Source: a phage
Length of the DNA: 64,000 bases
Strand: one strand, 5' to 3'
Sequence record: PZ172995.1
Positions 11,181 to 62,300 of the stretch are shown one piece after another. Numbering within the stretch: the first letter of the stretch is position 1; each line of letters starts with the position of its first letter. A program made the translations under genes and the position numbers. A model generated the notes under the pieces. That model worked only from the letters and a program-made list of their open reading frames with translations, did not search any database and was not told the DNA's origin.

Positions 11181-11482
11181 TGGCAGTTTTAAATTGGTCT
11201 ACAAATGAAGTGGATACTGATGGTAATCAGTTAAAAGTTTTACCACCACCGGAAATTCAAGAGACAGGTCTTTTAAAGGGTGAGCCTATGGGTAGACAGT
11301 GGTTCAACTATATTATCAACTACCTGCTGAATAAAGTAAACGGCACTGTTGGTGAAGTTCGCTCATATGCAACTGAGCAACCAGATTTAGTGGCTAATGG
11401 CTGGAATCTAATTAAGTCTGAGACAGGGACTGCATCAACAAGCACAAGAAACCTTTACACATATGAATATGTAGGAGCTTAA
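11180..11482 (+). CDS. hypothetical tail protein
   Basis: 100 aa, coupled start, upstream of tail fiber. Confidence 0.4.
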
Positions 11483-11484
11483 TA

Positions 11485-12660
11485 ATGGCAGTAGGTGAAA
11501 TTCAAATTAGTGCCTTGCCACAAGCGGCCTTACCAATTGATTTGAGTGATATCTTCCATCTTAAGCAAGGTGTTGAGGATAAAAGATGTACGCTTGAACA
11601 GTTGTTAGCACCTCACGCATCTTTGAGGAATAATCCTCATGGTGTAACTAAATCACAAGTAGGTCTTGATAATGTTATTAACTCTCTTCAATTAGTTGCA
11701 GCTAATAACTTGTCAGATATTGTAAATGTTGCTGAGGCAAGAGCAAATCTACAAATTATGTCGTCAGAGGAAGTGAATAACTTAATTCAGCAACATATTG
11801 ACGACAAAAGTAACCCACACAACACAACGAAAGCACAGGTTGGTTTAAGTAATGTTCAGAACTGGACAACATCCAACCTGTACAATGAAGATGCTGATAA
11901 ATATGCTACCGCGAGAGCAGTGAATAATCTATACAAAGCTATCCAAGCATCATATCCAGTGGGGACTATTCATCTGTCTGTTAACTCTGCTAACCCATCC
12001 ACTTACTTGCTTTGTGGAGGTACTTGGGAGTTGGTTTCTAAAGGTAGGGCGCTTGTTGGTTATGATACAGAAGCTAGACCTGTTGGTTCAACGTTCGGTT
12101 CTCAGACTGTAGCATTAACAAATAATAATTTACCAGCACACACCCACTCTATCTATTTAACAGGTGGTGGTCACACACACTCTGCAAGCGTATCTATCTC
12201 TAGTTTTGATTATGGTTCAAAAAGTACATCAACTTTTGATTACGGTACAAAAACGACTAATAGTGCTGGTGCTCACACTCACACGTTTAGCGGCACGACA
12301 AGTAATGATGGTAACCATAACCATAGAGTACCACTGAGAGGTAATGATAGAAGTGGGGGGGATGCTATTACTGCATCTGCTTATGCTGGGGTTAATAATA
12401 ATACGTATACTGATTTAGCAGGTGCTCACACCCATAGCTTCTCAGGCACAACTGCATCATCTGGTGCTCATAACCATACTGTTGCAATTGGTGCTCATAG
12501 CCACACTGTTAATATTGGTTCACACAGTCATACGGGCACTGTTACTGTCTCTAGCTCTGAACATACACACTCAGGAACATCTGGTTCTGTTGGTGGTGGT
12601 CAAGCTTTCAGTGTTGAGCAGCCATCTTTTGTCGTGTATGTATGGCAGAGAACAGCTTAA
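11485..12660 (+). CDS. tail fiber protein with C-terminal HxH-repeat domain
   Basis: 391 aa; C-terminal third has repeated H-T-H / H-N-H / H-S-H triplets (AHTHSFSGTT, GAHNHTVAIGAHSHTVNIGSHSHTG) and ends ...VWQRTA; RBS AGGAG. Confidence 0.65.
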   Translation: MAVGEIQISALPQAALPIDLSDIFHLKQGVEDKRCTLEQLLAPHASLRNNPHGVTKSQVGLDNVINSLQLVAANNLSDIVNVAEARANLQIMSSEEVNNLIQQHIDDKSNPHNTTKAQVGLSNVQNWTTSNLYNEDADKYATARAVNNLYKAIQASYPVGTIHLSVNSANPSTYLLCGGTWELVSKGRALVGYDTEARPVGSTFGSQTVALTNNNLPAHTHSIYLTGGGHTHSASVSISSFDYGSKSTSTFDYGTKTTNSAGAHTHTFSGTTSNDGNHNHRVPLRGNDRSGGDAITASAYAGVNNNTYTDLAGAHTHSFSGTTASSGAHNHTVAIGAHSHTVNIGSHSHTGTVTVSSSEHTHSGTSGSVGGGQAFSVEQPSFVVYVWQRTA

Positions 12661-12669
12661 TTTCTTTAC

Positions 12670-12690
12670 AGGGGCTTTGTAGCCCCTTTT
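12670..12690 (+). terminator. rho-independent terminator (weak U-tract)
   Basis: AGGGGCT-TTGT-AGCCCCT followed by TTTT between the two fiber genes. Confidence 0.45.
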
Positions 12691-12706
12691 AAGAGGAAAA
12701 TTCATA

Positions 12707-15073
12707 ATGGCAGATTACAAATTGAGTCAGTTAAACTCAATCGACACAATTCGTTCAGAAGACCTATTGCATATCAGAGTTAAGAAAAGACCTGAAATGT
12801 TGGGTGACGAAGACCGTAGAATGACCTATCAAGACTTCTTAGCTTCCTTCAAACTAGAAAGGTTTGTTCAGATTGCTGGGAGTAATATGACTGGGGATTT
12901 AGGTATTGTCAAGCTACTTTACGGTGGAAAGATTGTATTTGACCCTACAGGCTCTTCTGAGATTACTATTGGGGATGTTTTAAAGACTTTTAAACTTAAT
13001 GCAAGTGGCCTTAAACTCACTATTGCAGACTCTTCAAGGTCAGCAACTGTTTATCACACTCTGAATAAGCCAAGCCCTAATGAGCTTGGTATGAGAACTA
13101 ATGAAGAGAATGATGCAAGATATGCAAGGCTTGCTGCAAATAACATCTTTACATCCCAACAGACTATCCAAGCAAATGGTGAAGGTATTAGGTTAAAAAA
13201 CTCTTCTGAGAACTCACCGTTGTATATCAGAGGTCAGGATAGTGCTGGTGAGAATAGATGGTATATCGGTAATGGTTCAGGGGGTGATAATGTTACTATC
13301 CGCAACCACAAGACAGACTGTGAAGTTATTCTATCTAGTGTCGTGGCTATCAATAAAACATTAAGCATCACTGGTCAAGTCAAACCTTCAGATTTCTCTA
13401 ACTTAGATGCTAGATACTTCACTCAGACAGTTGCTAATCAGAGATTTGCACAGTTAGCTGGTAATAACACTTTTACAGGTGCTAATACATTTAGGACTAT
13501 GAGTATTATCTCAAATGCTGCTGCTATCACACTACAATGTGCATCAGCAAATGAATCCCTGTATCTACTTGCAAAAGATTATCAAGGTGGTAACTTATGG
13601 TATGTTGGTAAAGGTAGCTCAGGTGATGGTGTAACTATCTACAACTATACCACTAACACCTCTTTGGTCTTAGATGCTGCTGGAGTATCAGCAAATAAAA
13701 ATGTCAGAATCACTGGTCAAGTTCAACCTTCTGATTGGGCTAATATTGACTCTAGATACATTCCAGCAGGAACTTTGAGTAACCTTGCTAAACTGAGTGA
13801 TGTGAATACTTTTAGGTCTGCGCAAGTTATTAAACAGAATGGTCCAGTGTTGCAGCTAAGGAATACTATTCAGGACAGGGAGCTATATATCTCTGCTCAT
13901 AATGCTGATGATGTTAGAAAGTGGTACATCGGTAACGGGGATGCTAACCCAGCAAGGCTTATTATCCACAACGACAGAACTGCAACTACGATTTATATGC
14001 AAGACGATTTCTTGCTGAATAAAACAGTTAGAATCACTGGTCAAGTCCAACCTTCAGATTTCTCTAACTTAGATGCTAGATATTATACGCAATCTGTAGC
14101 AAACTCTAGGTACATGCTTGCTGTCTCTACTGGTTCTGGTACAGAGGCTGGTGATGGTGATGGTATTGCTTGGAATGCTAGGACTGGTCTGTATAATGTT
14201 ACAGGGAAATCTGGTTGTTCAACACAGCTAGTTTATCAAATGTTTATCGGTGGTGGCTCAACACCAACTGCACAGTTGAAGTTTAGCTACAGGAATGGTG
14301 GTGTCTGGTATAGGACAGCAAGAGATGGCTATGGATTTGAGAATAGCTGGGCTAAAATCTATACAGACCAAGATAAGCCAACCCCTTCAGATATCGGTGC
14401 ATACACTAAAGCTGAAACTGACCAGAAGATTGCAGAAGCAATTAGTGACTCTACAGACCTGAATAAAATCTATCCAGTAGGTATTGTAACGTGGTTTAAC
14501 AGTAATGTTAACCCTAATACAGCACTTCCTGGTCTAACTTGGACGTACCTGAATAATGGTGTTGGCAGAACTATTAGGATTGCAGCAGCAAATGGTTCAG
14601 ATGTTGCTACAACTGGTGGTTCAGACTCTGTAACGTTATCTGTTGGTAACTTACCTTCACACACACATAGTTTCTCTGCTACCACTTCATCATTTGATTA
14701 TGGTACTAAGACTTCTAGCACAACTGGTAACCATAACCACAACAGAGGTAACATGGAAATTTCTGGTGTGGTTGGTTGGTTCAGAAGTGATAACAGTGCA
14801 TTCTACACTGCGAGCGGTGCGTTTCAGATGGGTAGTTCTCAGGCTTCACATGGCTTCACAGGCTCTAACTTCACTTACGGTGCTGCTGCTGATTTCCACG
14901 CGTCAAGAACTTGGACAGGTGTAACCAACACAACTGGCAACCACGCGCACACTGTTGGTATTGGTGCTCACAGCCACACAGTTAGCGGTAACACAGGTGG
15001 TACTGGTTCTGGTTCAGCATTTAGCGTCACTAACCAGTTCTACAAGTTAATGGCTTGGGTAAGGACTGCTTAA
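12707..15073 (+). CDS. long tail fiber protein with internal tandem repeats and HxH C-terminal domain
   Basis: 788 aa; three ~100-aa repeats each ending ITGQV(K/Q)PSD(F/W)(S/A)N(L/I)D(A/S)RY; C-terminus has HxH repeats and ends ...AWVRTA, homologous to C-terminus of 11485..12660. Confidence 0.65.
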   Translation: MADYKLSQLNSIDTIRSEDLLHIRVKKRPEMLGDEDRRMTYQDFLASFKLERFVQIAGSNMTGDLGIVKLLYGGKIVFDPTGSSEITIGDVLKTFKLNASGLKLTIADSSRSATVYHTLNKPSPNELGMRTNEENDARYARLAANNIFTSQQTIQANGEGIRLKNSSENSPLYIRGQDSAGENRWYIGNGSGGDNVTIRNHKTDCEVILSSVVAINKTLSITGQVKPSDFSNLDARYFTQTVANQRFAQLAGNNTFTGANTFRTMSIISNAAAITLQCASANESLYLLAKDYQGGNLWYVGKGSSGDGVTIYNYTTNTSLVLDAAGVSANKNVRITGQVQPSDWANIDSRYIPAGTLSNLAKLSDVNTFRSAQVIKQNGPVLQLRNTIQDRELYISAHNADDVRKWYIGNGDANPARLIIHNDRTATTIYMQDDFLLNKTVRITGQVQPSDFSNLDARYYTQSVANSRYMLAVSTGSGTEAGDGDGIAWNARTGLYNVTGKSGCSTQLVYQMFIGGGSTPTAQLKFSYRNGGVWYRTARDGYGFENSWAKIYTDQDKPTPSDIGAYTKAETDQKIAEAISDSTDLNKIYPVGIVTWFNSNVNPNTALPGLTWTYLNNGVGRTIRIAAANGSDVATTGGSDSVTLSVGNLPSHTHSFSATTSSFDYGTKTSSTTGNHNHNRGNMEISGVVGWFRSDNSAFYTASGAFQMGSSQASHGFTGSNFTYGAAADFHASRTWTGVTNTTGNHAHTVGIGAHSHTVSGNTGGTGSGSAFSVTNQFYKLMAWVRTA
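13113..14110 (+). repeat. in-frame tandem triplication (~290-340 nt units) inside tail fiber gene
   Basis: Protein-level repeats NSPLYIRGQ...WYIGNG...ITGQVKPSDFSNLDARY / ESLYLLAK...WYVGKG...ITGQVQPSDWANIDSRY / RELYISAH...WYIGNG...ITGQVQPSDFSNLDARY; coordinates approximate. Confidence 0.6.
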
Positions 15074-19238: not shown

Positions 19239-19282
19239 AATGACCTCAAAGTTATATTAAATTTTGTATTACATTGAGTATA

Positions 19283-19311
19283 AAAATAAGCTATAACACC
19301 TGACTTGTCAA
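19283..19311 (-). promoter_or_regulatory. sigma70-like promoter candidate on minus strand (TTGACA-N17-TATTTT)
   Basis: Reverse complement of 19306-19311 is TTGACA, of 19283-19288 is TATTTT; ~45 nt upstream of ATG at 19238. Confidence 0.4.
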
Positions 19312-19417
19312 CAGATTTTATAGCTTATTTGGCAGATTTTTTATAAGGCTACTGCCATCCTTCCATACATTACCTAACCAAGCCGAACATCACACAACCA
19401 GACCGAGCCGCACCCCG

Positions 19418-19501
19418 CCTTATTAAAAGACCCTGTTTAAAGACCTTTTAAAAAGGTAAGTCTCATTTTAATGTAGCTGAGACTAACTACCCATACCTCA
19501 C
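19418..19501. repeat. conserved intergenic element, copy A (~85 nt)
   Basis: CCTTATTAAAAGACCCTGTTTAAAGACCTTTTAAAAAGG followed by a ~52-nt core (GTAAGTCTCATTTTAATGTAGCTGAGACTAACTACCCATACCTCAC) identical to 20842-20893; core carries inverted repeat AGTCTCA/TGAGACT; partial third copy at ~19557-19595. Confidence 0.7.
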
Positions 19502-19585
19502 CTTACCACGCCGAACAGTACCGGACTATACCAGACCATGCCGAACATTGCCGAGCCTTATTAAAAGACCCTCTTAAAGACCTTT

Positions 19586-19610
19586 TAAAAAGGAGCCTCC
19601 GAAGAGGCTA
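19586..19610 (-). terminator. rho-independent terminator on minus strand (UUCG loop)
   Basis: Minus-strand read: GTAGCCTC-TTCG-GAGGCTCC then TTTTT; directly downstream of stop of 19621..20061. Confidence 0.65.
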
Positions 19611-19620
19611 CCTAGTCAAC

Positions 19621-20063: not shown

Positions 20064-20669
<606 letters not shown>

Positions 20670-20808
20670 TTAGTTGATTGTTAAGTTGTTTGTAAAGAAC
20701 CCTCAACAGAAGACTCTTTAGAAACTTGGTAGATTTTTAACGTGGCTACTACCATCCACCCTTACCGCGACACACCGAACCAGACCTTACACCACCTTAC
20801 ACCACCCC

Positions 20809-20893
20809 ACCTCATTAAAAGACCCTCTTAAAAGGCCTTTTAAAAAGGTAAGTCTCATTTTAATGTAGCTGAGACTAACTACCCATACCTCAC
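20809..20893. repeat. conserved intergenic element, copy B (~85 nt)
   Basis: CCTCATTAAAAGACCCTCTTAAAAGGCCTTTTAAAAAGG plus core identical to copy A; flanked by A/C-rich (minus strand G/T-rich) CACC/CCGAAC-repeat sequence as in copy A. Confidence 0.7.
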
Positions 20894-21061
20894 ATCACCG
20901 CACCATACTACACCTGACACCACCTTACACCACCGCACCATACCTGACCGAGCTACACATCACTTAAAAACCCTCTTAGAAAGACTCTTAAGTGATGCTG
21001 GTGAGTACCTGTTGGTTTATGCTGCTCAGTATACTCACCAAATTTTCTATGTCAACAACTT

Positions 21062-22198
21062 TTATTCATAATCTCGTATAACGAGACCAACAGGGAACTG
21101 TAAAGACCCCTTACGAGTCATCTTCTGGAACTGAACAGTTAAAGGTTTCCCGATAAACTCTTCAGGATGTTCAGCAAGATACTGTTTCTTCTCGTGTGTA
21201 GTTTTCCATGAGACATCTACAAAGACGTTAGGAAGAGTCTCTACAACGAACTTGCCATGACCACGCTTATCAGTCTTTACACCAGTCACTTTAAACTCTT
21301 CAGTGTGCATCTTCTTGTGCTTAATCAAGAAGTATGAACGGTGACAACACTCATAGAAGGAGTCTTCAGAGATTGAACGGTACATTGCACCTTCAAACTT
21401 AGCTTCAACCCACTTATCATGAGCTTCATCAAACTCTTCCCAAGAATTTACACGACGAGACTTAACAGGAACAACTTTACAGCCATCTCTAAAGTCATTC
21501 AATGGTGAAGTCTCAATAATATCTCTACGCTCAGGCCACGTCTTAGTGCTGTCACAGATATCGTACCAGTAGAACTGGAGTAGATGTCGGTCTGGATTGT
21601 CAGCATTCTTAATCATAGACACAATATCTTCTAAGTCCCAACCGTGAGCATAAATCTCACCATCAAAGTCTTCTACTTGTGGATGCAATTTAAGCAACAA
21701 AAGCAAATCTGGGATTAGTTCTTCTGGGACGTTGTAAATAGTATTCTCACGAGAATAAGCCGTGAAGCTAACTAAATCAGCATCTCTTGAAATCCTACAA
21801 CGGACACCATCAAGTTTCGGTTGAGCATCAGCAGGGAACTTCAGATACTTTGCATGGCTAACCTTTGCAGCATCATGAGCAAGCTGTACACCTACCTTCT
21901 CAGTATTCTGTGCAGACTCTTTTGTGTAAGCATAACCTTTGCGGTCAACCTGCTTTTTATACTTTGCAGCAACTTCAAAGAGAGCTTGCTGTTCAGCGTT
22001 ACGCTCATTCTTTTTACCGATGTTTTTAGGTTCTGCTGTATACTCTTCAAACATCATCTTGCCATTTTCTTTACCGTAGGTTGTAATAACTTTGTCACCT
22101 ACAGCAACGCATGACCAGACGTTGAAAGAGCCATCTTTATTTTGTTTGTACAGTATTGTCATTTTTAACCTCTGAGTGATACCAAGTGTAACAAGCAT
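21062..22198 (-). CDS. ATP-dependent DNA ligase
   Basis: 378 aa with adenylation motif KLDGVRC (KxDGxR); true start may be internal Met at ~22162 (RBS GAGG upstream). Confidence 0.8.
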   Translation of the reverse strand: MLVTLGITQRLKMTILYKQNKDGSFNVWSCVAVGDKVITTYGKENGKMMFEEYTAEPKNIGKKNERNAEQQALFEVAAKYKKQVDRKGYAYTKESAQNTEKVGVQLAHDAAKVSHAKYLKFPADAQPKLDGVRCRISRDADLVSFTAYSRENTIYNVPEELIPDLLLLLKLHPQVEDFDGEIYAHGWDLEDIVSMIKNADNPDRHLLQFYWYDICDSTKTWPERRDIIETSPLNDFRDGCKVVPVKSRRVNSWEEFDEAHDKWVEAKFEGAMYRSISEDSFYECCHRSYFLIKHKKMHTEEFKVTGVKTDKRGHGKFVVETLPNVFVDVSWKTTHEKKQYLAEHPEEFIGKPLTVQFQKMTRKGSLQFPVGLVIRDYE

Positions 22199-22355
22199 TA
22201 CATGCGTAAAGCTCTAAGTCATTTTTATCTGGTTTATGGAAACAGTTTGACCCACAACGACACCGAAATAGTTTACCATCAACACGAAGAATGAATGTTT
22301 CAAGCTCACCATCTTCTGTAAGAACTGCGTTCTTAAATTTATCTGCTACAGTCAT
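22137..22355 (-). CDS. small zinc-ribbon protein
   Basis: 72 aa; CRCGSNCFHK...CNACYTWYH four-Cys pattern. Confidence 0.4.
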   Translation of the reverse strand: MTVADKFKNAVLTEDGELETFILRVDGKLFRCRCGSNCFHKPDKNDLELYACNACYTWYHSEVKNDNTVQTK

Positions 22356-22558
22356 TTTCTCTTACCGCCAATCTCTACGTCGATAACTTGAACATCACCA
22401 GCAACATCAAACTTATGGATGATGCTTTCCACAGTGTAAGTCCAACCCCCAATGCGAACCAACTCACCTTCTCGTGGGACGATTGGATTACGTTGAGCTA
22501 CGGTTGTAGTGGAGTGAACAACATCATAACAGTAGATATAGTTTACTAGGACTTCCAT
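22352..22558 (-). CDS. hypothetical small protein (start adjusted to internal Met)
   Basis: ORF-track frame 22352..22657; Met at 22558 is preceded by GAGG 8 nt upstream and avoids overlap with 22569..22805. Confidence 0.35.
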   Translation of the reverse strand: MEVLVNYIYCYDVVHSTTTVAQRNPIVPREGELVRIGGWTYTVESIIHKFDVAGDVQVIDVEIGGKRK

Positions 22559-22568
22559 CGTAAAAACC

Positions 22569-22805
22569 TCACTCAATAACCGTGGTATGTGATTGACTAT
22601 TTTTACCATATCTATAAGATGTTGTTGTTTGAGAGTTTGGACATCTGACAACAACAATATCTGTGCTTATTGCATCACCATTTAACTTATAGACTTTGCA
22701 ATCTTGCATCTCTGGCGGGAGACTATAAGAAGCATTCTTGTCCTCGTAAGAGGGGTTACAGCCAGATAGAAAGATAATACTAAGCACAATTACTGCTTTC
22801 CACAT
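22569..22805 (-). CDS. putative lipoprotein
   Basis: Start adjusted to Met (MWKAVIVLSIIFLSGC...) with AGGAGA RBS; lipobox-like FLSGC after hydrophobic segment. Confidence 0.5.
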   Translation of the reverse strand: MWKAVIVLSIIFLSGCNPSYEDKNASYSLPPEMQDCKVYKLNGDAISTDIVVVRCPNSQTTTSYRYGKNSQSHTTVIE

Positions 22806-22818
22806 AATACTTCTCCTA

Positions 22819-22974
22819 TTACTGTTCACGATGTTCTACTTCTCTGTACGTTCGTCGATAGTTTATAATAAGCTGTGCTAATTCGTTGCTTTTAACATCT
22901 GAACGTAGCAGTTGCCAATCAAAACCTTTACCGACCCTTCCATATAAACTAAAGAGTTTTACTTTGCGTTTCAT
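22819..22974 (-). CDS. small basic protein (51 aa), not in supplied ORF track
   Basis: ATG with upstream GGAGA RBS (GGAGATACCAAAATG); translation MKRKVKLFSLYGRVGKGFDWQ...; below 60-aa cutoff. Confidence 0.35.
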   Translation of the reverse strand: MKRKVKLFSLYGRVGKGFDWQLLRSDVKSNELAQLIINYRRTYREVEHREQ

Positions 22975-22991
22975 TTTGGTATCTCCAATAC

Positions 22992-23204
22992 TCAGATGTC
23001 AATGCTAATACGTTCACCCTTAAGGACTCCTGTACGGTCCCTTGCAATCTTACCGTCAACAATAAGGATATGCGCAGACTTTAAAGATTCACTATTAAAA
23101 CCTTTTACGAACTTACTAGGCATCACTACAATAAGCATCTCCTGAATCAACTCTGGAGTATAGCAATTGTCGTGAAGTTGCTGAATAACGTCTGAAAGTG
23201 TCAT
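22992..23204 (-). CDS. small protein, paralog A of 23407..23625
   Basis: Start adjusted to MTLSDV... (RBS GGAGACATCAAAAATG); C-terminal DGKIARDRTGVLKGERI matches paralog B GGKIAKDKTGYLKGERV. Confidence 0.45.
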   Translation of the reverse strand: MTLSDVIQQLHDNCYTPELIQEMLIVVMPSKFVKGFNSESLKSAHILIVDGKIARDRTGVLKGERISIDI

Positions 23205-23410
23205 TTTTGATGTCTCCAATACTCAATATCAATAAGTTCTTGTGCAATGCTTTTCAGATTACCTTTCAAGAAAACCTTCTCAGAACCTGAAAGAGATGAA
23301 TTGTCAATTAACCTGTTCATTCTCTCAAACAACTTCTGCTTACGGTTCTTGATAGTTTCCTTTGAAGCATCTTTCATCATTGCTGCATGGGTTCTTCCAC
23401 GGTGGCTCAT
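23201..23410 (-). CDS. small basic protein
   Basis: 69 aa, K/R-rich, sandwiched between two paralogous small genes. Confidence 0.4.
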   Translation of the reverse strand: MSHRGRTHAAMMKDASKETIKNRKQKLFERMNRLIDNSSLSGSEKVFLKGNLKSIAQELIDIEYWRHQK

Positions 23411-23625
23411 AGTAAACTCTCAATATTTACACGCTCACCTTTTAAGTAGCCTGTCTTATCTTTTGCGATTTTACCTCCAGCAATAAAGATATCTACTCTA
23501 CGTAGAACTTCAGGGTTTACCTTCAAATTCCTACAGCTACTGCAAAGAACAATAAACATCCCTTCAATCTCTTTTTGAGAATAACCTGCACATTGCAACT
23601 GAACTTCAATCTCTGAAAGTGTCAT
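23407..23625 (-). CDS. small protein, paralog B of 22992..23204
   Basis: 72 aa starting MTLSEI...; shares N- and C-terminal sequence with paralog A. Confidence 0.45.
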   Translation of the reverse strand: MTLSEIEVQLQCAGYSQKEIEGMFIVLCSSCRNLKVNPEVLRRVDIFIAGGKIAKDKTGYLKGERVNIESLL

Positions 23626-23686
23626 GTGACCTCCTATACAAGATATAGTATAAGGTACTCTTCCATGAGCACCTTGTCAATACTAA

Positions 23687-26416
23687 TTAGTGTACTTCAA
23701 GCCAGCTTTTACCAACCTTACCAGTACCTGTAACAAGTGTTTCTTTCTTAAGACCTAAGTTTTTAGAAGCTTGTCCATAATACCAGTCAGTAACTGCTTT
23801 CACATCTGCCGTCATACTTTCTGGACATTCCCAGCTTGTTTCATCGTGATATGCGCAGAGCAAACGAGCACCAATAGCTGGTTGACGACCATTCAACTTC
23901 ATCAAGCCTTCGTCAATCATACGGCGACAAGCAAGGTTAATTGCCTCATTTTGAATCTGAGCCTCCGAACCCATTAGCAAATAATTCAATAACTTATGTG
24001 GAGATTTACACCACAACCAAGCTCCAGCAACCTTTACAAAACCTCCTTTAGAGATTGCAGCAGTCTTACCAAACACCTCTTCAAGTGCCTTTTTAGTCGC
24101 TTTGTAGTCAGCTTCCAAGTCATCTAGCAGCTTCTTAATTTTAGGCAAACGAATAAAGTAAGTCTGTTTAGTCAGTGCACCTTCCTGAGTAGTTGCAGCT
24201 TTAATCGTCTTAGCAAACTTCTCATCACCTGCACCGAACAGCAGTGCATAGATACCATTCTTAGCTTTCTTACGACCCTTACTAATCTCATGAAGGAGAT
24301 TCTCATCTTGAGTAGCTCGGCAAGTCAAGATATCCTGCTCATCATTCAAGCTAAAGTAAATACTGTTCAGTGTGTGTGCATCAGTCCCTGAATAGACAAC
24401 GTAAAGGTCATTCTCAGAGTCATAGCGAAGGTACTTATCAATCTCTGGATTGAGGTACTCATCAAAATGTTTGCAGTAATAGCGTCCATCTTCTTGACGA
24501 ATAAACTCAATTTCTTCTTTACCTTGCGTTACCGCTTTGGTGAAGTCTTTGTCACCCATAAAGTTACAAAGAAGAACTAGCTGGGCTGAGTTCATGTCTA
24601 CAGAGACAACGTTAGTACCTTCTTCACAAATCCACACTGCCCTCATTGGTTCCCCATAGACAGCAGCACCAGACGGTACGTTTACAATACCATACTGTGT
24701 CATACGTCCAGTTGAAGTACCAAATACCATTGCACCAGCACTAAGGCGACCATCTGGACGAATCTGGTTCAACCAACCTTTTTCATCATCCTTTGAGTTC
24801 TCAATAGTTCTGCGTCGGTGCATCAAAGTATAGTACTTAGCAATCTTCTGTCCAAGCTCACCTTCAATCGTATCATAAGATGATTCAGTAAGTTTTGGTG
24901 AAGTACGGATTAAGCAAGGCTCAAGCAAATCTGTGTACTTCTTCACAGACCAGTTATGCTCAATGTATTGGACACCTTCATGTTCAACATAACTCAAACC
25001 ACACCGTTCAACCATCTCCTGCCACTTAGGATGCTTGGTAATCATCTTTTTGTTGTCTTTGAAACGACAAACCTTAACAGGACGACCATCTGAGTCTTTC
25101 TTGTAGTTCCAGTCATCTGGAATCCAACCAACTGATTTCAAGTAGTCTTTAACAACTGCTACCTGAGTCATACGAGAAACTTCGAACTCAATTGGTGTAT
25201 ATGGTGCATCAATCAAACCTGTGTAGCGACTTGACTCAAGTTCAAAGTGGTTAACAACATGACTGTTATAGTACTTCACAGTCTTAACTGTTTTTACTGG
25301 CTTCCAGTCTTTGCACTTCTTACCAATCTTTGCATTCAACTCATTGCAAATTGCACGAGCATCCTTCATTGCTACAAAACCTTCCTTGTACTCTTCACCA
25401 GTTACAGAGTTGGTTGGGGTATAGCAATTCCGCTTTTCAATGTTAAAAATCTTGGTAGTTGGTTTACCAAATGGCTTGATTTCATATGTCTGCATCTCAC
25501 CGTTACGTACCTGTTGACGATACTTTGTCTTAGGGTACTTGGTAATTCTTTTCAGTCCATCTGCATGACCAAACGCTTCAACATACTCATTCCAAGCTTT
25601 TGCAAACTCTTCTCCAGTAACTTTACCTTTGGTTTTAATAGTTGGAGGAAGATGTGGTTCAACTTCTGAAGCAAGCTCATTAGTCAACTTATCAAGTTCC
25701 TTTACATGGAACTCCATAAGCTCTTTATCAGCTTTCCAACCATTGATAGCCTGTTGACTCATCCAGAAAGATGTTTCTTTAGCTCGCATGTAGGTTTCAT
25801 AAGTATCTACGCCACACTTCTTCAGCTTGAGATATTCATTATCCAGTGCACGTTTAGTTTTGGCGTTAATACGGATATCCTCTACGACACGAGTGAAGAT
25901 TTCTGCATTCCACACACCCCAATGTTCAATCTCTGGTTTACGTACACCAACACGAGCACCCCATGCTGCCAAGCCATGAGCACCTTTATAGCCCTTTGGA
26001 GTTGGTCTATCCATCCACTGAACACGAGACTGGATAAGAGAATCCTGAAAGAAATTACTCCACGGCTTACACTTTGGATTATCAAAGTTCCATAAATCAG
26101 GTGCAATGTGATTGAAAACCCACCAGTCATAACCCAAACCATTATGGATGCAAAGTCGTTTTGCCTTTAACGCAAACTCAATACCTTCACGCAAACCACC
26201 CTTGATGTACTTGGTGTATTTGTGACCGAGGATAGGCTCATCTGTAAAGACCCATACAGGTGGCTCTTCATCGTCAGATTTATAGTCTGCGAAAGCCATT
26301 ACGTGCACTTTAGTGAACTCAAGGAGTAAACCATCAGTTTCTGTATCACCAACTAAATGTAAGTTTTTAAAATCTACGTTTTCCATTTTTACTCCCTCTA
26401 AAATCATTAACCTCAT
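23687..26416 (-). CDS. DNA polymerase, family A (T7 gp5-like) with 3'-5' exonuclease domain
   Basis: 909 aa; N-terminal exo motif DTETDGL; motif B-like KAKNGIYALLFGAG; motif C-like CAYHDE; RBS GAGGGAG. Confidence 0.85.
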   Translation of the reverse strand: MRLMILEGVKMENVDFKNLHLVGDTETDGLLLEFTKVHVMAFADYKSDDEEPPVWVFTDEPILGHKYTKYIKGGLREGIEFALKAKRLCIHNGLGYDWWVFNHIAPDLWNFDNPKCKPWSNFFQDSLIQSRVQWMDRPTPKGYKGAHGLAAWGARVGVRKPEIEHWGVWNAEIFTRVVEDIRINAKTKRALDNEYLKLKKCGVDTYETYMRAKETSFWMSQQAINGWKADKELMEFHVKELDKLTNELASEVEPHLPPTIKTKGKVTGEEFAKAWNEYVEAFGHADGLKRITKYPKTKYRQQVRNGEMQTYEIKPFGKPTTKIFNIEKRNCYTPTNSVTGEEYKEGFVAMKDARAICNELNAKIGKKCKDWKPVKTVKTVKYYNSHVVNHFELESSRYTGLIDAPYTPIEFEVSRMTQVAVVKDYLKSVGWIPDDWNYKKDSDGRPVKVCRFKDNKKMITKHPKWQEMVERCGLSYVEHEGVQYIEHNWSVKKYTDLLEPCLIRTSPKLTESSYDTIEGELGQKIAKYYTLMHRRRTIENSKDDEKGWLNQIRPDGRLSAGAMVFGTSTGRMTQYGIVNVPSGAAVYGEPMRAVWICEEGTNVVSVDMNSAQLVLLCNFMGDKDFTKAVTQGKEEIEFIRQEDGRYYCKHFDEYLNPEIDKYLRYDSENDLYVVYSGTDAHTLNSIYFSLNDEQDILTCRATQDENLLHEISKGRKKAKNGIYALLFGAGDEKFAKTIKAATTQEGALTKQTYFIRLPKIKKLLDDLEADYKATKKALEEVFGKTAAISKGGFVKVAGAWLWCKSPHKLLNYLLMGSEAQIQNEAINLACRRMIDEGLMKLNGRQPAIGARLLCAYHDETSWECPESMTADVKAVTDWYYGQASKNLGLKKETLVTGTGKVGKSWLEVH

Positions 26417-56471: not shown

Positions 56472-56678
56472 ATGCTTTACAGTCGTGAATTGATGGTTAC
56501 AACTAACGTTAACACAAAGGTAAAACGTTTTTATATGCAAGTGTGCGGCGCATGGCGTAGAATATCAGAAGCTGACTATTGCAACTATGTAGAGACGGCT
56601 ATTAATTCTAATTGCTACCTTACAATAAACACTAAGAAGTTTACAAGACAGACAGCAATTTACTACTACGATAAATAA
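56472..56678 (+). CDS. small early protein
   Basis: Start set at MLYSRE... after RBS CTGGAGAATCAAAATG (ORF-track frame 56424..56678). Confidence 0.45.
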   Translation: MLYSRELMVTTNVNTKVKRFYMQVCGAWRRISEADYCNYVETAINSNCYLTINTKKFTRQTAIYYYDK

Positions 56679-56679
56679 A

Positions 56680-56769
56680 AAAGTACTTTACAAGGGGCTT
56701 AAAAGCTGATATCTTAAGCCCCAGATAAAGAGCTTTACTAAATTAACCCTTAAACTAGGAGATTCAAAA
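56680..56769 (+). promoter_or_regulatory. early intergenic cassette type 1 (stem-loop + AGATAAAGAGCTTTAC + SD)
   Basis: AGTACTTTACA, hairpin GGGGCTTAAAAGCTGATATCTTAAGCCCC (56694-56722), AGATAAAGAGCTTTAC, CCTTAAACTAGGAGATTCAAAAATG. Confidence 0.6.
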
Positions 56770-57150
56770 ATGGCTTATCGTGCACCGAAATTCATCAACA
56801 AAGACAACTTCCGCAACGCACTGGAGAAGTCACTTGGTGAAAATTTTAAAGGTAACATTATCGTTGTTCACGTATTCAATTTTAAGTATGATGTAAACGG
56901 GAATAGAATCAACCATTACACAGCAACCATGTTAGATGGTACGCTATCAAGTGAAAAAGCTGTACTGAATGCACTTGCAGGACGTGGTAAAAACCTGATA
57001 AGATGCGATAAGAGACGTTATCAGGGTGGCGCATATGGTTATGATGATGCTGTTTATCATCTTGAAAATATGGGCTATTCAGTGGAAAAAGCTGGAGTGT
57101 CTCAAATAATCGGCAGTGACGGCTATGTGACAATTTTCAAAATTAACTAA
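56770..57150 (+). CDS. small early protein
   Basis: 126 aa, preceded by conserved AGGAGATTCAAAAATG. Confidence 0.5.
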   Translation: MAYRAPKFINKDNFRNALEKSLGENFKGNIIVVHVFNFKYDVNGNRINHYTATMLDGTLSSEKAVLNALAGRGKNLIRCDKRRYQGGAYGYDDAVYHLENMGYSVEKAGVSQIIGSDGYVTIFKIN

Positions 57151-57151
57151 T

Positions 57152-57238
57152 AAAGTACTTTACAGGGGGCTTATAGTTCGATAAAGTAAGCCCCAGATAA
57201 AGAGCTTTACCACTAAATCCTAAATTGGAGATTCAAAA
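57152..57238 (+). promoter_or_regulatory. early intergenic cassette type 1
   Basis: Hairpin GGGGGCTTAT...GTAAGCCCC (~57166-57194) + AGATAAAGAGCTTTACCACTAAATCCTAAATTGGAGATTCAAAAATG. Confidence 0.6.
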
Positions 57239-57529
57239 ATGGCTATTATTAAAAACGTTGTAATTCCTGCAAAAACTCGTGATGACGCTCGCATCATGGC
57301 GAAAAAGTTAGGCGGGAAAGTGGTTGACAACGGAAAACAAACTGCTGTAAGGTGGAACGTGAAGGCGGATAAACAAATGAATTTAAAAAATTCACCAATA
57401 AACCTTTTTACATGTGTAAACACTATCGGGAAAACGAATGTATACACTAAAAAGGCATATATCAGACGCATCGCCATGACGTCACCTATTCGGACAATGA
57501 GAAGTCATGCAAAGCTGAAAATTAAGTAA
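57239..57529 (+). CDS. small early protein
   Basis: 96 aa after conserved SD context. Confidence 0.5.
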   Translation: MAIIKNVVIPAKTRDDARIMAKKLGGKVVDNGKQTAVRWNVKADKQMNLKNSPINLFTCVNTIGKTNVYTKKAYIRRIAMTSPIRTMRSHAKLKIK

Positions 57530-57530
57530 T

Positions 57531-57619
57531 AGAGTACTTTACAGGGGGCTTAAAAGCTGATATCTTAAGCCCCAGATAAAGAGCTTTACCACTCAATCCT
57601 TAAACTAGGAGATTCAAAA
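57531..57619 (+). promoter_or_regulatory. early intergenic cassette type 1
   Basis: Hairpin GGGGGCTTAAAAGCTGATATCTTAAGCCCC (57545-57573), near-identical to copy at 56694. Confidence 0.6.
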
Positions 57620-58132
57620 ATGAAAACTGTAGACGCTACCTTTGAAGTTGTAAAAGAAAAATTTTCCATCATTTACGAAGCTGTCAATTGCTACGAAGCA
57701 AGCCATAATCTTGATAATTGGAAGTTTACAGATGACCATCAAGGCGGTGTGACTATTAAAAACCCCAACTGTCAGCGTAATGGATTTAAATATGCAATTC
57801 CTTTACATTACAGCCTTAAACAGCTTTCAATTGACTATGCAAAACAAGGCCGGGAAAATCCATCGAAAGAGGCTTACATCAGCTTACAGAAAGAACTAGA
57901 AAGAGATTTAGAGGCTTCAGAATATAACATCGCCGCGAAAGTTGTAGATGCAAACGGTAGCACGGTTTTAGAGAGTTTTTATATTGGTTATGCTTTCGAT
58001 TGGTGCTACAGTGACGGCGATGATTTAGATGACAGACTAAAAGAGGAAGTGAACAACGCAGACGCAGAATCTGAAGTATTAGAACGCTTGGAAGCATTAA
58101 AAGATTCAGTGATGAATATCTTTAAGAACTAA
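57620..58132 (+). CDS. small early acidic protein
   Basis: 170 aa, D/E-rich C-terminal half. Confidence 0.5.
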   Translation: MKTVDATFEVVKEKFSIIYEAVNCYEASHNLDNWKFTDDHQGGVTIKNPNCQRNGFKYAIPLHYSLKQLSIDYAKQGRENPSKEAYISLQKELERDLEASEYNIAAKVVDANGSTVLESFYIGYAFDWCYSDGDDLDDRLKEEVNNADAESEVLERLEALKDSVMNIFKN

Positions 58133-58133
58133 A

Positions 58134-58223
58134 TAGACCTCTTTACACGGGGCTAACAAGCGGATATGATAGCCCCAGATAAAGAGATTTATCAAATTAA
58201 CCCTTAAACTAGGAGATTCAAAA
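58134..58223 (+). promoter_or_regulatory. early intergenic cassette type 1 (variant)
   Basis: Hairpin GGGGCTAACAAGCGGATATGATAGCCCC (~58149-58176) + AGATAAAGAGATTTATC + CCTTAAACTAGGAGATTCAAAAATG. Confidence 0.55.
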
Positions 58224-58520
58224 ATGAAATTATCAAATAAAGTTAGGGAAAACCTTAGCAAATTACTCAACAAAATTGATTTTATAGAGACATCAAGGAA
58301 TAGTCATGATGTTATGGAATGGTTACACGGCAAAATAAAAGGCCGTCGTGTAGTGATTTGCTTATGGAATAGTTGCAGGGAGTATAAAAAGCCTGTATTG
58401 CAAATTAATGTTTATGATGATACTTTTAAAAGTCCTGTAAAGTCTAAAAGCGATTTATTAGAATCCTATGAGATAACTGTAAATGGCAAAGTATCACGTA
58501 AAGAGGAAACACCATGTTAA
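58224..58520 (+). CDS. small early protein
   Basis: 98 aa after conserved SD context. Confidence 0.5.
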   Translation: MKLSNKVRENLSKLLNKIDFIETSRNSHDVMEWLHGKIKGRRVVICLWNSCREYKKPVLQINVYDDTFKSPVKSKSDLLESYEITVNGKVSRKEETPC

Positions 58521-58846
58521 TGACTGGTATCACTGCAATCATTGCCATTTTCGCGCTATATAAGGCATATAAAGCCTATAATCTAGCAAATAAGGCAATC
58601 ACACAGCAAGTTAGCAATAACCTTGTAGAGAGCTTTCTAGGGCGTTTAAGTGATGAGCAAATAAAGCGGCTAGAGATGAGCTTCAGATATAAAGCGAAAA
58701 CCTATCAGATAAGTGACATCTTCAAAGATGATTTCCAGTTAGTTGATGATTATAATTCTCTGATAAATGCTTTAAACATCAGTGACTTGAAAGACTATCA
58801 CGCTGTAATTGTTCAAGAATTGAGCAAACGAAAACAAAGTGTTTGA
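58514..58846 (+). CDS. small early membrane protein
   Basis: 110 aa; N-terminal hydrophobic segment (MLMTGITAIIAIFALY); stop overlaps TTGACA of next cassette. Confidence 0.45.
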   Translation: MLMTGITAIIAIFALYKAYKAYNLANKAITQQVSNNLVESFLGRLSDEQIKRLEMSFRYKAKTYQISDIFKDDFQLVDDYNSLINALNISDLKDYHAVIVQELSKRKQSV

Positions 58847-58937
58847 CACTGATTTTTAGATAGGTTAAATTACACATCAACGGGGAGGGAATGACCTTCC
58901 CCACTAAATAAAGTCCTTAAACTAGGAGATTCTAAAA
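58843..58937 (+). promoter_or_regulatory. early intergenic cassette type 2 (TTGACA-N17-TAAATT promoter + 5' stem-loop + SD)
   Basis: TTGACA 58843-58848, TAAATT 58866-58871, hairpin GGGGAGGGAATGACCTTCCCC (~58881-58902), SD AGGAGATTCTAAAAATG. Confidence 0.6.
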
Positions 58938-59096
58938 ATGTTTTGTGCAGGTGATAAAGTTGTCTGGAATGATATAGATGACGGTTTATGTACGAAAGTT
59001 GTTGTTATCTTAGAAATTGATTATATCACTGGTGTTGCAACTGTAGCAGATAATGATATAATCTTTGATGTCTTAATTAGTGAACTGTCAAAATAA
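58938..59096 (+). CDS. small early protein (52 aa), not in supplied ORF track
   Basis: ATG after conserved cassette SD; translation MFCAGDKVVWNDIDDGLCTK... Confidence 0.4.
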   Translation: MFCAGDKVVWNDIDDGLCTKVVVILEIDYITGVATVADNDIIFDVLISELSK

Positions 59097-59121
59097 AGTC
59101 CTTAAACTAGGAGATTCAAAA

Positions 59122-59394
59122 ATGTACACTACTAACAACGGTCGCACTTTAAATGTAACCCTACGCCACTATGTGAACGGTGTAATGCACTTCGAGGATT
59201 TACAAGCTGAACAACATATATTGGATTGGCAACTTGCAGGACTCCAAAAAACTGCTACCGGATACGGGAAAAAGATTCCAACTAGCTGGAAAGTATACTA
59301 CGAAGGCCGTTTGCGTAGAATTTATCAAGATGTATGCGGCAATAGCGCATCAAGTTACATCATAGTAAAAGGCAAAAAGCTGCATTTAGCATAA
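59122..59394 (+). CDS. small early protein
   Basis: Start set at MYTTNNGRT... after AGGAGATTCAAAAATG (ORF-track frame 59080..59394 begins upstream with GTG). Confidence 0.45.
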   Translation: MYTTNNGRTLNVTLRHYVNGVMHFEDLQAEQHILDWQLAGLQKTATGYGKKIPTSWKVYYEGRLRRIYQDVCGNSASSYIIVKGKKLHLA

Positions 59395-59395
59395 A

Positions 59396-59479
59396 GTACT
59401 TTACAAGGGGCTTATAAATCTGTACAGTAAGCCCCAGATAAAGAGCTTTACCACTAAATCCTAAATTGGAGATTCAAAA
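59396..59479 (+). promoter_or_regulatory. early intergenic cassette type 1
   Basis: Hairpin GGGGCTTATAAATCTGTACAGTAAGCCCC (59407-59435) + AGATAAAGAGCTTTACCACTAAATCCTAAATTGGAGATTCAAAAATG. Confidence 0.6.
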
Positions 59480-59884
59480 ATGGCTATTAATAATCGTGAG
59501 TTATCTATCTTAAAAGCACGTTTGACCGTTAACCGGATTAATGTTATCACATCAGCAGCACCGGATGAAACACTGCAAAACATTATTGGGAAGATTCAAA
59601 GTGTTATCTTAGACGTTGAAAGCGTAAAAAACTCATTGGCTGACGTTGCAGCCGGTATCACGCTAGACGGTGCACAACATGAGATGGCTGACATGTTAGG
59701 CAAATCAAAGGTAATGAATAAAGAATTAGACTTGAAAATGTTTCGATTTGCTGTTAAAGTGTGGCTATCCGTCGAGTATGACGCTAATTTTGCAATCGCT
59801 GATTTCTTTGCCACTTGGTTACAACGTAACTTAACAAATCATGATTTCCGTGATGTCTGTGATGCAATCTACGCAGAACTTTAA
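59480..59884 (+). CDS. small early protein
   Basis: 134 aa after conserved SD context. Confidence 0.5.
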   Translation: MAINNRELSILKARLTVNRINVITSAAPDETLQNIIGKIQSVILDVESVKNSLADVAAGITLDGAQHEMADMLGKSKVMNKELDLKMFRFAVKVWLSVEYDANFAIADFFATWLQRNLTNHDFRDVCDAIYAEL

Positions 59885-59891
59885 AAAGATG

Positions 59892-59984
59892 TTGACACTG
59901 ATTTTTAGATAGATTAAATTACTCATCAACGGGGAGGCAATAACCTCCCTACTAAATAAAGTCCTTAAACTAGGAGATTCTAAA
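59892..59984 (+). promoter_or_regulatory. early intergenic cassette type 2
   Basis: TTGACA 59892-59897, TAAATT 59915-59920, hairpin GGGGAGGCAATAACCTCCC (~59931-59949); near-identical to cassette at 58843. Confidence 0.6.
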
Positions 59985-60182
59985 ATGGCTATTATTAACG
60001 GCTTAACCATTGAAACAACACACATCAAAGATATCAAAGTTGGTGATGTAGTCCTTTCCCACGGCGTAGAAAAAACTGTCACTGCAAAGGATATCAAAGA
60101 GGATTCTTTCATGGGTAGAACTCTCTTCGGTGATTCTTATTGCTTAGGTTATCTTGCAGTTTTAAAAGTTGTCAAAAATTAA
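59985..60182 (+). CDS. small early protein
   Basis: 65 aa after conserved SD. Confidence 0.45.
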   Translation: MAIINGLTIETTHIKDIKVGDVVLSHGVEKTVTAKDIKEDSFMGRTLFGDSYCLGYLAVLKVVKN

Positions 60183-60183
60183 G

Positions 60184-60274
60184 TAATAAAGTACTTTACA
60201 AGGGGCTTAAAAAGTTGGTATCTTAAGCCCCAGATAAAGAGCTTTACACAGTCCTTAAACTAGGAGATTCAAAA
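60184..60274 (+). promoter_or_regulatory. early intergenic cassette type 1
   Basis: Hairpin GGGGCTTAAAAAGTTGGTATCTTAAGCCCC (60203-60231) + AGATAAAGAGCTTTACAC + CCTTAAACTAGGAGATTCAAAAATG. Confidence 0.6.
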
Positions 60275-61117: not shown

Positions 61118-61129
61118 ACAAGCCTGATA

Positions 61130-61206
61130 AAAGTCTGTAAATTGTCAATCAACGGGAGGTAATAACCTCCCCACTAAGTAAAGTCCTTAAACTAGGAGAT
61201 TCAAAA
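61130..61206 (+). promoter_or_regulatory. early intergenic cassette type 2 (variant lacking clear TTGACA)
   Basis: GTCTGTAAATTGTCAATCAACGGGAGGTAATAACCTCCCCACTAAGTAAAGTCCTTAAACTAGGAGATTCAAAAATG; hairpin ~61154-61172. Confidence 0.55.
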
Positions 61207-61548
61207 ATGGCTTATGTAACCGTAATTACCGATAAAGATGGTTCATCTTGGTCAACTCAAGTAAGTGATAAGATGTCACCTATGCAGTGCCTAAAATACT
61301 TTGAGCAATGGAACAAAGGTGAAGAAACAAGCCCCTTCCAAGTGATGCAGATTATCCATACAGATAACGAAGGGAATAAAACTGTTTTGAATAGTGAGTA
61401 CTATGCAACCAGATTCGAAACGAGAAGTAAAGCAATGAAACTCTTACGTGAATCCGGTTACTCTCATATTGCCTCACTAATCTGGGATGACCTGCTAAAA
61501 AGTCAGCGTATCAGCTATGTAAAACCTGAAAAAACATTCATCAGTTAA
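61207..61548 (+). CDS. small early protein
   Basis: 113 aa after conserved SD. Confidence 0.5.
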   Translation: MAYVTVITDKDGSSWSTQVSDKMSPMQCLKYFEQWNKGEETSPFQVMQIIHTDNEGNKTVLNSEYYATRFETRSKAMKLLRESGYSHIASLIWDDLLKSQRISYVKPEKTFIS

Positions 61549-61699: not shown

Positions 61700-61769
61700 G
61701 TAAATTACTAATCAACGGGAGGTAATGACCTCCCCACTAAGTAAAGTCCTTAAACTAGGAGATTCAAAA
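61700..61769 (+). promoter_or_regulatory. early intergenic cassette type 2
   Basis: TAAATTACTAATCAACGGGAGGTAATGACCTCCCC (hairpin ~61717-61735) + ACTAAGTAAAGTCCTTAAACTAGGAGATTCAAAAATG; TTGACA boxes at ~61572-61600 upstream. Confidence 0.55.
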
Positions 61770-62300
61770 ATGAACAAGTTCAAAGCTATCAATTACATTC
61801 GTTCGAGTAGCATCATGTCAAAACCTGTTAAAGATACCTATGAATTTCGTTGCAATGGGGTGCATTTTGCAACCATCACCAAATCAGAAAACGGAGCTTA
61901 TTACATCCATCGCCGTAATGTTGCAACCGTTGTTGTCTCTCATTTTATGCAAGCTGTCGCGGAACTTCTCCCGATGTTTTTAGGGCTTTACTTGGATGAG
62001 TGTAAAAACGTTCACAATCACGTTAAAAACCTTTTAAACAGCTATAAAATGGCTTATGAACGTTCTATCAAGTCATTGAACAAGTTTTACAACGCACCTG
62101 AAAATACTGTGTCAATAGCCTATGGTGTAAGCGGTGAAATGGTAAACTTATCCAATGTGGAAGAAATCAAGCTGCATGATTTACGCCCTAACGGTTACGC
62201 TAAAACCATCGGTGAAGGTTTAACTTTCAATATCAAGAACTTAGAAAAAACTTTAAAAGATATTGAAAAAGATATTGACGAGACAATCAAAAGTCTGTAA
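61770..62300 (+). CDS. early protein
   Basis: Start set at MNKFKAIN... after cassette SD (ORF-track frame 61725..62300). Confidence 0.5.
   Translation: MNKFKAINYIRSSSIMSKPVKDTYEFRCNGVHFATITKSENGAYYIHRRNVATVVVSHFMQAVAELLPMFLGLYLDECKNVHNHVKNLLNSYKMAYERSIKSLNKFYNAPENTVSIAYGVSGEMVNLSNVEEIKLHDLRPNGYAKTIGEGLTFNIKNLEKTLKDIEKDIDETIKSL

Follow-up and report, generated by a model that had tools for sequence, protein, structure and literature searches.

Two related small genes that follow the DNA polymerase gene in the phage analyzed here encode members of one small alpha/beta protein family that diverged long ago, and the gene for a basic protein that separates them is an independent, widely distributed accessory gene. 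We call the two family members A and B, and the basic protein M. The analyzed window, a stretch of 64,000 nucleotides (sequence record PZ172995.1), is the genome of a Felixounavirus, that is, a Felix O1-like myovirus. The interval between the polymerase and ligase genes of such phages is a mosaic of small-gene cassettes with variable gene order, and the presence of both versions in one genome probably goes back to recombination of these cassettes rather than to local duplication. The genes are already on record, as hypothetical proteins and PHROGs, for more than 250 genomes; new here are the deep relationship of A and B, the independence of M, and the anatomy of the conserved spacer and junction sequences. 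The explanation as a whole, combining ancient versions, cassette shuffling, and the function suggested below, is in our judgment slightly better placed to be right than wrong.

Every gene in the region 21000-26400 of the window is on the minus strand. The 2-kb stretch around the A/M/B locus is 95-97% identical to many Felixounavirus genomes, and 259 phage records match it. The features considered here, from the polymerase gene to the ligase gene, are the following.

23687..26416, minus strand: family-A DNA polymerase gene, the first in order, followed by B, M, A, and a gene for a 51-aa protein
23626..23686, minus strand: conserved spacer from the polymerase stop to the B start, a putative promoter or leader, with TTGACA at 23675-23680, TATACT at 23647-23652, and the strong Shine-Dalgarno sequence AGGAGG at 23630-23635
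23407..23625, minus strand: paralog B, 72 aa, phrog_4230, of the type that Mooglevirus has as its first small gene after the polymerase
23201..23410, minus strand: M, a 69-aa basic protein, phrog_5180, a predicted helical hairpin, with orthologs ORF94 in Felix O1 and g45 in Bas63
23202..23233, minus strand: first copy of the junction element, ATTGATATTGAGTATTGGAGACATCAAAAATG, which encodes the M C-terminus IDIEYWRHQK, contains the Shine-Dalgarno sequence GGAGA, and ends at the A start codon
22992..23204, minus strand: paralog A, 70 aa, phrog_4230, ortholog of Felix O1 ORF93 and Bas63 g44
22972..23003, minus strand: second copy of the junction element, ATTGACATCTGAGTATTGGAGATACCAAAATG, which runs from the final codons and stop of A through 17 spacer nucleotides containing GGAGA to the start codon of the 51-aa protein gene
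22819..22974, minus strand: gene for a 51-aa basic protein (pI 10.2), phrog_2381, the next cassette after A, here as the "long" allele
between the 51-aa protein gene and the ligase gene, minus strand: a lipoprotein-like gene, a 68-aa gene, and a 72-aa zinc-ribbon-like gene, in that order
21062..22198, minus strand: ATP-dependent DNA ligase gene, the last of the interval

This is also the gene order of Felix O1 and Bas63, with the difference that these phages carry M and A only, whereas the window adds a B of Mooglevirus type upstream of M. The matches of A, B, M, and the 51-aa protein to PHROG profiles have E-values between 1e-37 and 1e-46, and phrog_4230, phrog_5180, and phrog_2381 are known families without assigned function. 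In the individual HMM comparisons, A belongs to phrog_4230 with E = 9.4e-42 (residues 1-69 of 72 model positions) and B with E = 7.4e-37 (residues 1-72 of 72), while M belongs to phrog_5180 with E = 6.1e-46 (69/69 positions). The 51-aa protein gene exists as two alleles of 51 aa and ~47 aa with 67% identity, each tied to one form of the A 3' end. An Rfam scan of positions 22700-23800 gave no match.

The paralogy of A and B, which a preliminary description of this DNA had proposed from shared terminal segments, was borne out by alignment: BLASTP aligns the two proteins end to end and without gaps, with 30/69 identities (43%) and E = 7e-17, and both fall into one PHROG. The motifs quoted there, MTLS(D/E) and (D/G)GKIA(R/K)D(R/K)TG(V/Y)LKGER(I/V), are exact. 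A third copy of the family was searched for in the whole window and not found. Both proteins are near neutral (pI 6.0-7.7), and they do flank a small basic-protein gene, since M has 15 lysine and arginine residues among its 69 aa, a pI of 10.2, and a net charge of about +7. In pairwise comparisons among ~34 related loci the dN/dS ratios were 0.08 (M), 0.09 (51-aa protein gene), 0.10 (B), and 0.19 (A); this range (0.08-0.19) reflects purifying selection, and all four are therefore real protein-coding genes. M is conserved at 81-99% identity, and its dS of 0.47 indicates that this conservation is due to constraint and not only to recent spread.

The preliminary description also saw these genes as tightly coupled and as sharing one ribosome-binding context, and the second point was right in part. 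The stop codon of B overlaps the start of M, and the B/M and M/A junctions are both 4-nt ATGA overlaps; A and the 51-aa protein gene are 17 nt apart. A common ribosome-binding context exists for A and the 51-aa protein gene, as the strings GGAGACATCAAAAATG and GGAGATACCAAAATG, the latter with one A fewer than originally given, but B and M differ: the context of B is TATAGGAGGTCACATG, with its own AGGAGG, and the start of M lies in the final codons of B. What A and the 51-aa protein gene have in common is part of a junction repeat of ~32 nt, described below.

The separation of A and B is deep. In a neighbour-joining tree their split lies at the same depth as the split of either clade from distant metagenomic members of 26-47% identity, and the A clade includes A' of phage Michonne at 54% identity. 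The DNA likeness of the two genes is confined to their first 14 nt. At 43% protein identity the copies of the window are not mutually closest, as orthologs of 74-97% identity occur elsewhere: B is 74-79% identical to the first-position gene of Moogle and Sf17 and 92% identical to the Sf19 type, and A is about 91-94% identical to Felix O1 ORF93 and 84-97% identical to the single copy of most Felixounaviruses. In addition, B-type genes hold the first position in Mooglevirus genomes that have no A. A tblastn search with B hit 291 places in 254 phage records, so at most ~37 records can contain two copies. Thus the two-copy state is a minority one (at most ~37/254 GenBank phage records, and 3/34 of the loci compared below), and it is not confined to one recent lineage; the B-M-A arrangement is found with two different forms of the A 3' end.

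Of ~259 related genomes, ~254 contain one or more copies of the family. When 1.84 billion representative proteins were searched with its profile, 13 were retrieved, and one of these was a spurious eukaryotic repeat protein. Members are confined to Felix O1-like phages, namely Felixounavirus, Mooglevirus, Suspvirus, and some relatives from metagenomes. Two or more of the distant members likewise lie between a family-A polymerase and a ligase gene; the other distant contigs are short.

The arrangement of the interval was compared in 34 loci from the window, GenBank records, IMG/VR contigs, and one metagenomic contig. The order polymerase-(HNH)-A, with no M, was observed in 11 loci and polymerase-(HNH)-M-A in 16, including Felix O1 and Bas63. 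Three loci, those of the window, DE17, and a UAB_Phi87-like contig, have polymerase-B-M-A, and six Mooglevirus-like loci have polymerase-(HNH)-(B or A')-M-X. An HNH homing endonuclease gene is inserted between the polymerase gene and the spacer in 18/34 loci. These varying gene strings make up a plastic small-gene region among replication genes, which supports the earlier interpretation in part.

The association of the family with M is loose in both directions. A stands without M in the 11 loci just mentioned. Conversely, Erwinia phage phiEa21-4 has an M ortholog (gp83, E = 1e-30), and a member of the A/B family was looked for in its polymerase-ligase cluster and not found. Homologs of M that are ~50% identical occur in T4-like Enterobacter phages, e.g., CC31p143, in a plastic region beside tRNA genes; the tblastn search of nucleotide records with A and B listed no Enterobacter record. 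Strict co-occurrence thus does not hold; the three genes form no obligate module, and the module initially supposed is not supported.

Two other readings of the locus were considered. According to the one offered in the preliminary description, a small-protein module has undergone recent local tandem duplication, and several facts go with it: two genes of the same family are separated by 200 nt and begin with the same 14 nt, and the repeated junction after M and A is compatible with a past duplication of a unit of family member and M. The low protein identity with no extended DNA identity, the closer orthologs of each copy in other genera, and the rarity of the two-copy state refute a recent date and leave this reading with hardly any probability. 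The other reading takes B, M, and A as one unit, e.g., a small complex, or a toxin/antidote-like pair with neutral or acidic neighbours that would neutralise the basic M. The ATGA overlaps on both sides of M and the charge difference between a strongly basic M and near-neutral A and B agree with it, as does the succession of a B-type gene and M in 9/9 loci; but A occurs without M, M occurs without the family in phiEa21-4 and is also found in the T4-like CC31, and in Felix O1-type genomes M follows the spacer with a strong Shine-Dalgarno sequence of its own. Such a unit is improbable, though less so than a recent duplication, and we keep to the reading of two ancient family members separated by an independent gene. 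The AlphaFold model of M (pLDDT 84.7) has helices at residues 17-36 and 42-68; Foldseek found no PDB match better than E = 1.6, and a search of PDB sequences with the family profile gave nothing below E = 0.39. Judging from the model, the product of this unrelated, mobile gene is a basic helical hairpin that probably binds nucleic acid.

Two short conserved sequences recur among the shuffled genes. The 55-nt spacer, TTGACAAGGTGCTCATGGAAGAGTACCTTATACTATATCTTGTATAGGAGG, is nearly invariant in the 34 loci, whether the polymerase or the HNH gene is upstream and whether A, A', B, or M is downstream. It is a putative promoter or leader of the small-gene cluster, as suggested by its sequence: the pattern TTGACA-N15-24-TATACT was found three times on the minus strand against 0.25 expected, and the spacer holds an imperfect 9-bp palindrome or hairpin (-18.3 kcal/mol, z = -2.1). 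A canonical sigma-70 promoter at this place was considered and rejected, because the two hexamers are 22 nt apart, which is too long, and a promoter scan did not list the spacer.

The second element is the junction, with a consensus of ~32 nt, ATTGAYAT(C)TGAGTATTGGAGAYAYCAAAA(A)TG. Its two copies in the window have 21 nt at 90% identity, and the exact string TGAGTATTGGAGA occurs in both. All M genes examined carry the junction at their 3' end, where it encodes IDIE(Y/F)WRHQK and the stop, whichever gene comes next (A, X1, or X2). Behind the 70-aa form of A the junction is present as well, loci without M included, and is then succeeded by the long allele of the 51-aa protein gene or by the unrelated X1. 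The string GAGTATTGGAGAnAnCAAAA(A)TG therefore recurs regardless of the flanking genes, as a boundary element does, and the spacer is invariant before A, A', B, and M. The 3' end of A itself exists in three forms. The first, apparently native, ends in ERIDILELL and a stop, with an ATGA overlap onto the short 47-aa allele, as in Felix O1, and the same style is seen in B and A'; the second, that of the window, ends in ERISIDI and a stop followed by the junction; and in the third A is fused to the 68-aa gene.

From this comparative anatomy, a history of the locus can be proposed. The two diverged versions would have been brought into one genome by cassette recombination in the hypervariable polymerase-ligase interval, not by local duplication. 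The junction copy after A would most simply be the scar of a deleted M gene that once came after A, and the deletion could have proceeded via the ATTGAYAT microhomology common to the C-terminal codons of A and M. The window would then hold two heterologous units, each consisting of a family member and M, the second of which lost its M. The HNH genes beside the spacer may promote such shuffling via double-strand-break repair. We consider this recombination history probable on the sequence evidence. No breakpoint of a cross between Mooglevirus and Felixounavirus was resolved within M, and the M of the window is Felix O1-like throughout, two sites being exceptional in that they are common to the window and a B-carrying locus. 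As no breakpoint is resolvable in M, the order of events is a reconstruction.

Both elements resemble arrangements in other phages. In T4-type phages, small early genes are reportedly shuffled at conserved regulatory cassettes called PeSL (promoter-early stem-loop), and lambdoid phages have "boundary" or "linker" sequences between genes. The common feature is that short conserved sequences recur between unrelated small genes, and the spacer, like PeSL, has promoter-like hexamers and a stem-loop. However, the elements of the window are unrelated to PeSL in sequence, one of the junctions is partly coding, as it specifies the M C-terminus, and recombination is here deduced from comparative anatomy.

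The AlphaFold2 model of A is of high confidence (pLDDT 93.7, pTM 0.79) and has a small alpha/beta fold: two helices at the N-terminus, a beta-alpha-beta unit, and, at the C-terminus, a hairpin in which the residues G51, I53, D56, T58, G59, L61, and G63 are invariant. Foldseek found no PDB match to this model better than E = 4, the search of PDB sequences with the A/B family profile gave nothing below E = 0.39, and scans of A, B, M, and the 51-aa protein against Pfam, NCBIfam, and PADLOC detected no credible domain. In agreement with the initial statement, no function can be assigned to the paralogs from the Pfam, NCBIfam, PADLOC, and PDB searches. Beyond its own family, the BFVD Foldseek search with A retrieved only uncharacterised proteins of phiEco32 (B0FIR2, 73 aa, TM 0.64) and EP335 (TM 0.60), with fold match probabilities of 0.99-1.0 and 24-25% identity to A. 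The C-terminal motif of the phiEco32 protein is weakly like that of A (HYLIIDGVLVKSRHG versus HILIVDGKIARDRTG). From its length and as the best HMM match in that genome, B0FIR2 probably corresponds to gp100, whose gene opens an operon behind an intergenic region of 290 nt, with a putative regulator next to it downstream; it is not beside the polymerase gene.

The genes had been assigned to the early region, which is right only in part. The A ortholog ORF93 of Felix O1 belongs to the "middle" class: its transcript was detected by RT-PCR and peaks at 25 min together with those of the polymerase ORF96 and the ligase ORF88 (Whichard et al. 2010, PMC3185647). A neighbour cassette, Bas63 g40, whose ortholog in the window is at 22137..22355, was reported as a clonally supported trigger of the hhe defence system (PMC11482910). 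In the text of the same Bas63 knockout study, other genes are named as counters, and g44 and g45, the orthologs of A and M, are not mentioned (PMC11482910). Our literature search found no paper on phrog_4230 or phrog_5180 and no Felixounavirus transcriptome, and two further preprints on the essentiality of phage genes do not include Felixounavirus.

With no domain or fold match, the function of A and B has to be judged from context: they are small and non-enzymatic, are co-transcribed with replication genes, and lie in a hyperplastic interval, where the neighbour cassette just mentioned has a reported interaction with a defence system. We tentatively suggest that they are stand-alone small non-enzymatic binding proteins that act on a host or defence factor. 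Their conserved face would be the C-terminal hairpin GK(I/L)xKDxTGxLKGE, and the retention of two diverged versions may provide a wider range of targets. The anti-defence or host-takeover role suggested in the preliminary description is likewise putative. A further proposal, that the family is a structurally novel counter-defence family whose two ancient alleles are stacked to widen specificity, appears doubtful. Against a counter-defence role, a near-universal copy at a fixed polymerase-adjacent position looks more core-like or replication-linked than the patchy genes typical of counter-defence. This position leads to the main alternative, in which A and B, rather than being directed at the host, would serve the family-A DNA polymerase as replication accessory factors, e.g., as a polymerase- or DNA-end-binding subunit, and two copies are redundant or specialised. 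Its fixed site just after the polymerase gene, which extends to distant metagenomic relatives, the presence of at least one copy in ~254/259 related genomes, and the expression in Felix O1 with polymerase and ligase at 25 min all speak for it. At the same time, the polymerase-ligase cluster of phiEa21-4 has no member of the family but a polymerase of the same type; the family evolves much faster than the polymerase (43% identity between A and B versus 62-100% for the polymerase C-terminus); the type of family member is uncorrelated with the type of polymerase; A and B are near neutral; and the fold relative in phiEco32 does not lie beside the polymerase gene of that phage. We regard a replication-accessory role as rather unlikely and continue to favor, as a tentative view, binding to a host or defence factor.

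A further lead came from a weak similarity between A and WaaK, the LPS core GlcNAc-transferase. The match is intriguing because the receptor to which Felix O1 adsorbs is the terminal GlcNAc of the LPS core, the residue that WaaK adds. An A-type protein would be a captured or mimicking beta-alpha-beta fragment of WaaK that perturbs receptor synthesis; such a decoy might confer superinfection exclusion or keep progeny from adsorbing to debris, with B as a diverged version with another target. All A-type members (8/8) match NCBIfam PRK15484 with E-values from 8e-5 to 4e-4, residues 4-49 of A align with residues 122-166 of E. coli WaaK at 30% identity and 28.9 bits, a score reached by 0/3000 shuffles, and A is the sole match to WaaK among the 910 ORFs of the window. 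However, the family match scores 19.6 bits against a curated cutoff of 618 and covers 47 of 380 residues, so that A is not a member of that family; hhalign gives a probability of 9%, and B-type and A'-type members have no match. Moreover, the most conserved motifs of the A/B family are absent from WaaK, Foldseek found no glycosyltransferase in the PDB, and what A shares with WaaK is a generic Rossmann-like beta-alpha-beta unit. Derivation from or mimicry of WaaK is extremely unlikely on these grounds.

Binding of a host or defence factor, which we prefer, has a parallel in phage T7, where the class II small genes gp5.5, gp5.7, and gp5.9 among the replication genes act on H-NS, sigma-S RNA polymerase, and RecBCD. 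As in T7, the genes considered here encode small non-enzymatic proteins directly after a T7-like family-A polymerase gene and are expressed with replication genes, but A, B, and M have no sequence or fold similarity to the T7 proteins.

The locus is a typical small-gene region, and its analysis leaves the current understanding of such regions unchanged. The spacer and the junction provide a testable view of how Felix O1-like phages swap small genes beside the polymerase gene, which is relevant to the engineering of biocontrol phages against Salmonella and E. coli. If A and B do bind a host or defence factor, they would represent a small protein fold not seen before, present in a single genome as two natural variants of specificity and testable in the tractable phages Bas63 and Felix O1.

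Eighteen of the 34 loci compared, the window's among the 34 (L002, L005, L007, L010-L012, L015-L018, L020, L022, L025, L027, L029-L032), carry a gene for an HNH homing endonuclease inserted after the polymerase stop codon and ahead of the conserved spacer; the window lacks this insertion. At least two sequence types of the enzyme were found, with either 98-100% or 37-48% identity to that of Felix O1, and the polymerase C-terminus is more divergent in the loci that bear it (62-94% identity). In the distant metagenomic relative L006, a canonical promoter, TTGACA-N16-TATAAT, precedes the post-polymerase small-gene cluster (L006:3700-3780). The promoter spacer contains a short palindrome, CCAC-ACGGAA-GTGG, and the ACGGAA in its loop is similar to the ATGGAA found in the loop of the hairpin in the window's spacer.

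Weak local similarity (30% identity) was detected between the A-type proteins, those of the paralog type encoded at 22992..23204, and residues 122-166 of the lipopolysaccharide GlcNAc-transferase WaaK of E. coli (L043:1761-2903). The match is statistically unusual, its score being reached in none of 3000 shuffles; the hhalign probability for A against WaaK is 9%. The similarity was not found in the B-type proteins.

Two further small genes lie between the A gene and the ligase gene:

22569..22829, minus strand, 86-aa ORF with a lipoprotein-type signal (..LSGC..), phrog_902
22137..22355, minus strand, zinc-ribbon-like gene of 72 aa, phrog_5768, just upstream of ligase

In orthologs of the 86-aa ORF the annotated start is an internal MWK codon, and in other phages a small cassette, X2, takes its place at the same position. 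The product of the zinc-ribbon-like gene is an ortholog of Bas63 g40 (96% identical). [quoted passage not shown]

Downstream of ligase, two intergenic regions contain repeats:

19239-19620, intergenic repeat region 1
20667-21061, intergenic repeat region 2

Each holds an array of about 150 nt of NNACC repeats with a 5-nt period (for example, ACACCGAACCAGACCTTACACCACCTTACACCACCCCACC), followed in both by a common block, TTATTAAAAGACCCT..AAAGACCTTTTAAAA; the two regions are 78% identical across 157 nt. TTGACA...TATACT sites adjoin both. The arrays could be origin or iteron arrays, or else arrays bound by a regulator. A pair of genes for proteins of 146 and 200 aa is bracketed by the two regions.

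An all-against-all comparison of the window ORFs revealed other similarities. Several small ORFs on both strands at 56600-63000 have short, highly similar N-terminal segments in common (for example, 91% across 23 aa for 61141..61545 and 61704..62297), probably reflecting repeated intergenic or leader sequences. The adjacent large plus-strand paralogs 11467..12657 and 12683..15070 share 32% identity across 221 aa.

Homologs of the basic protein M, encoded between B and A at 23201..23410, occur well beyond the Felix O1-like phages. They are present in about 40 Erwinia phage records, including phiEa21-4 (gp83), and in about 28 T4-like Enterobacter phages, at ~50% identity; in T4-like CC31 the homolog, CC31p143, adjoins the tRNA cluster. 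Two homologs outside the window are located as follows:

L050:19874-20125, M homolog
L051:3995-4207, M homolog

M behaves like a mobile accessory gene.
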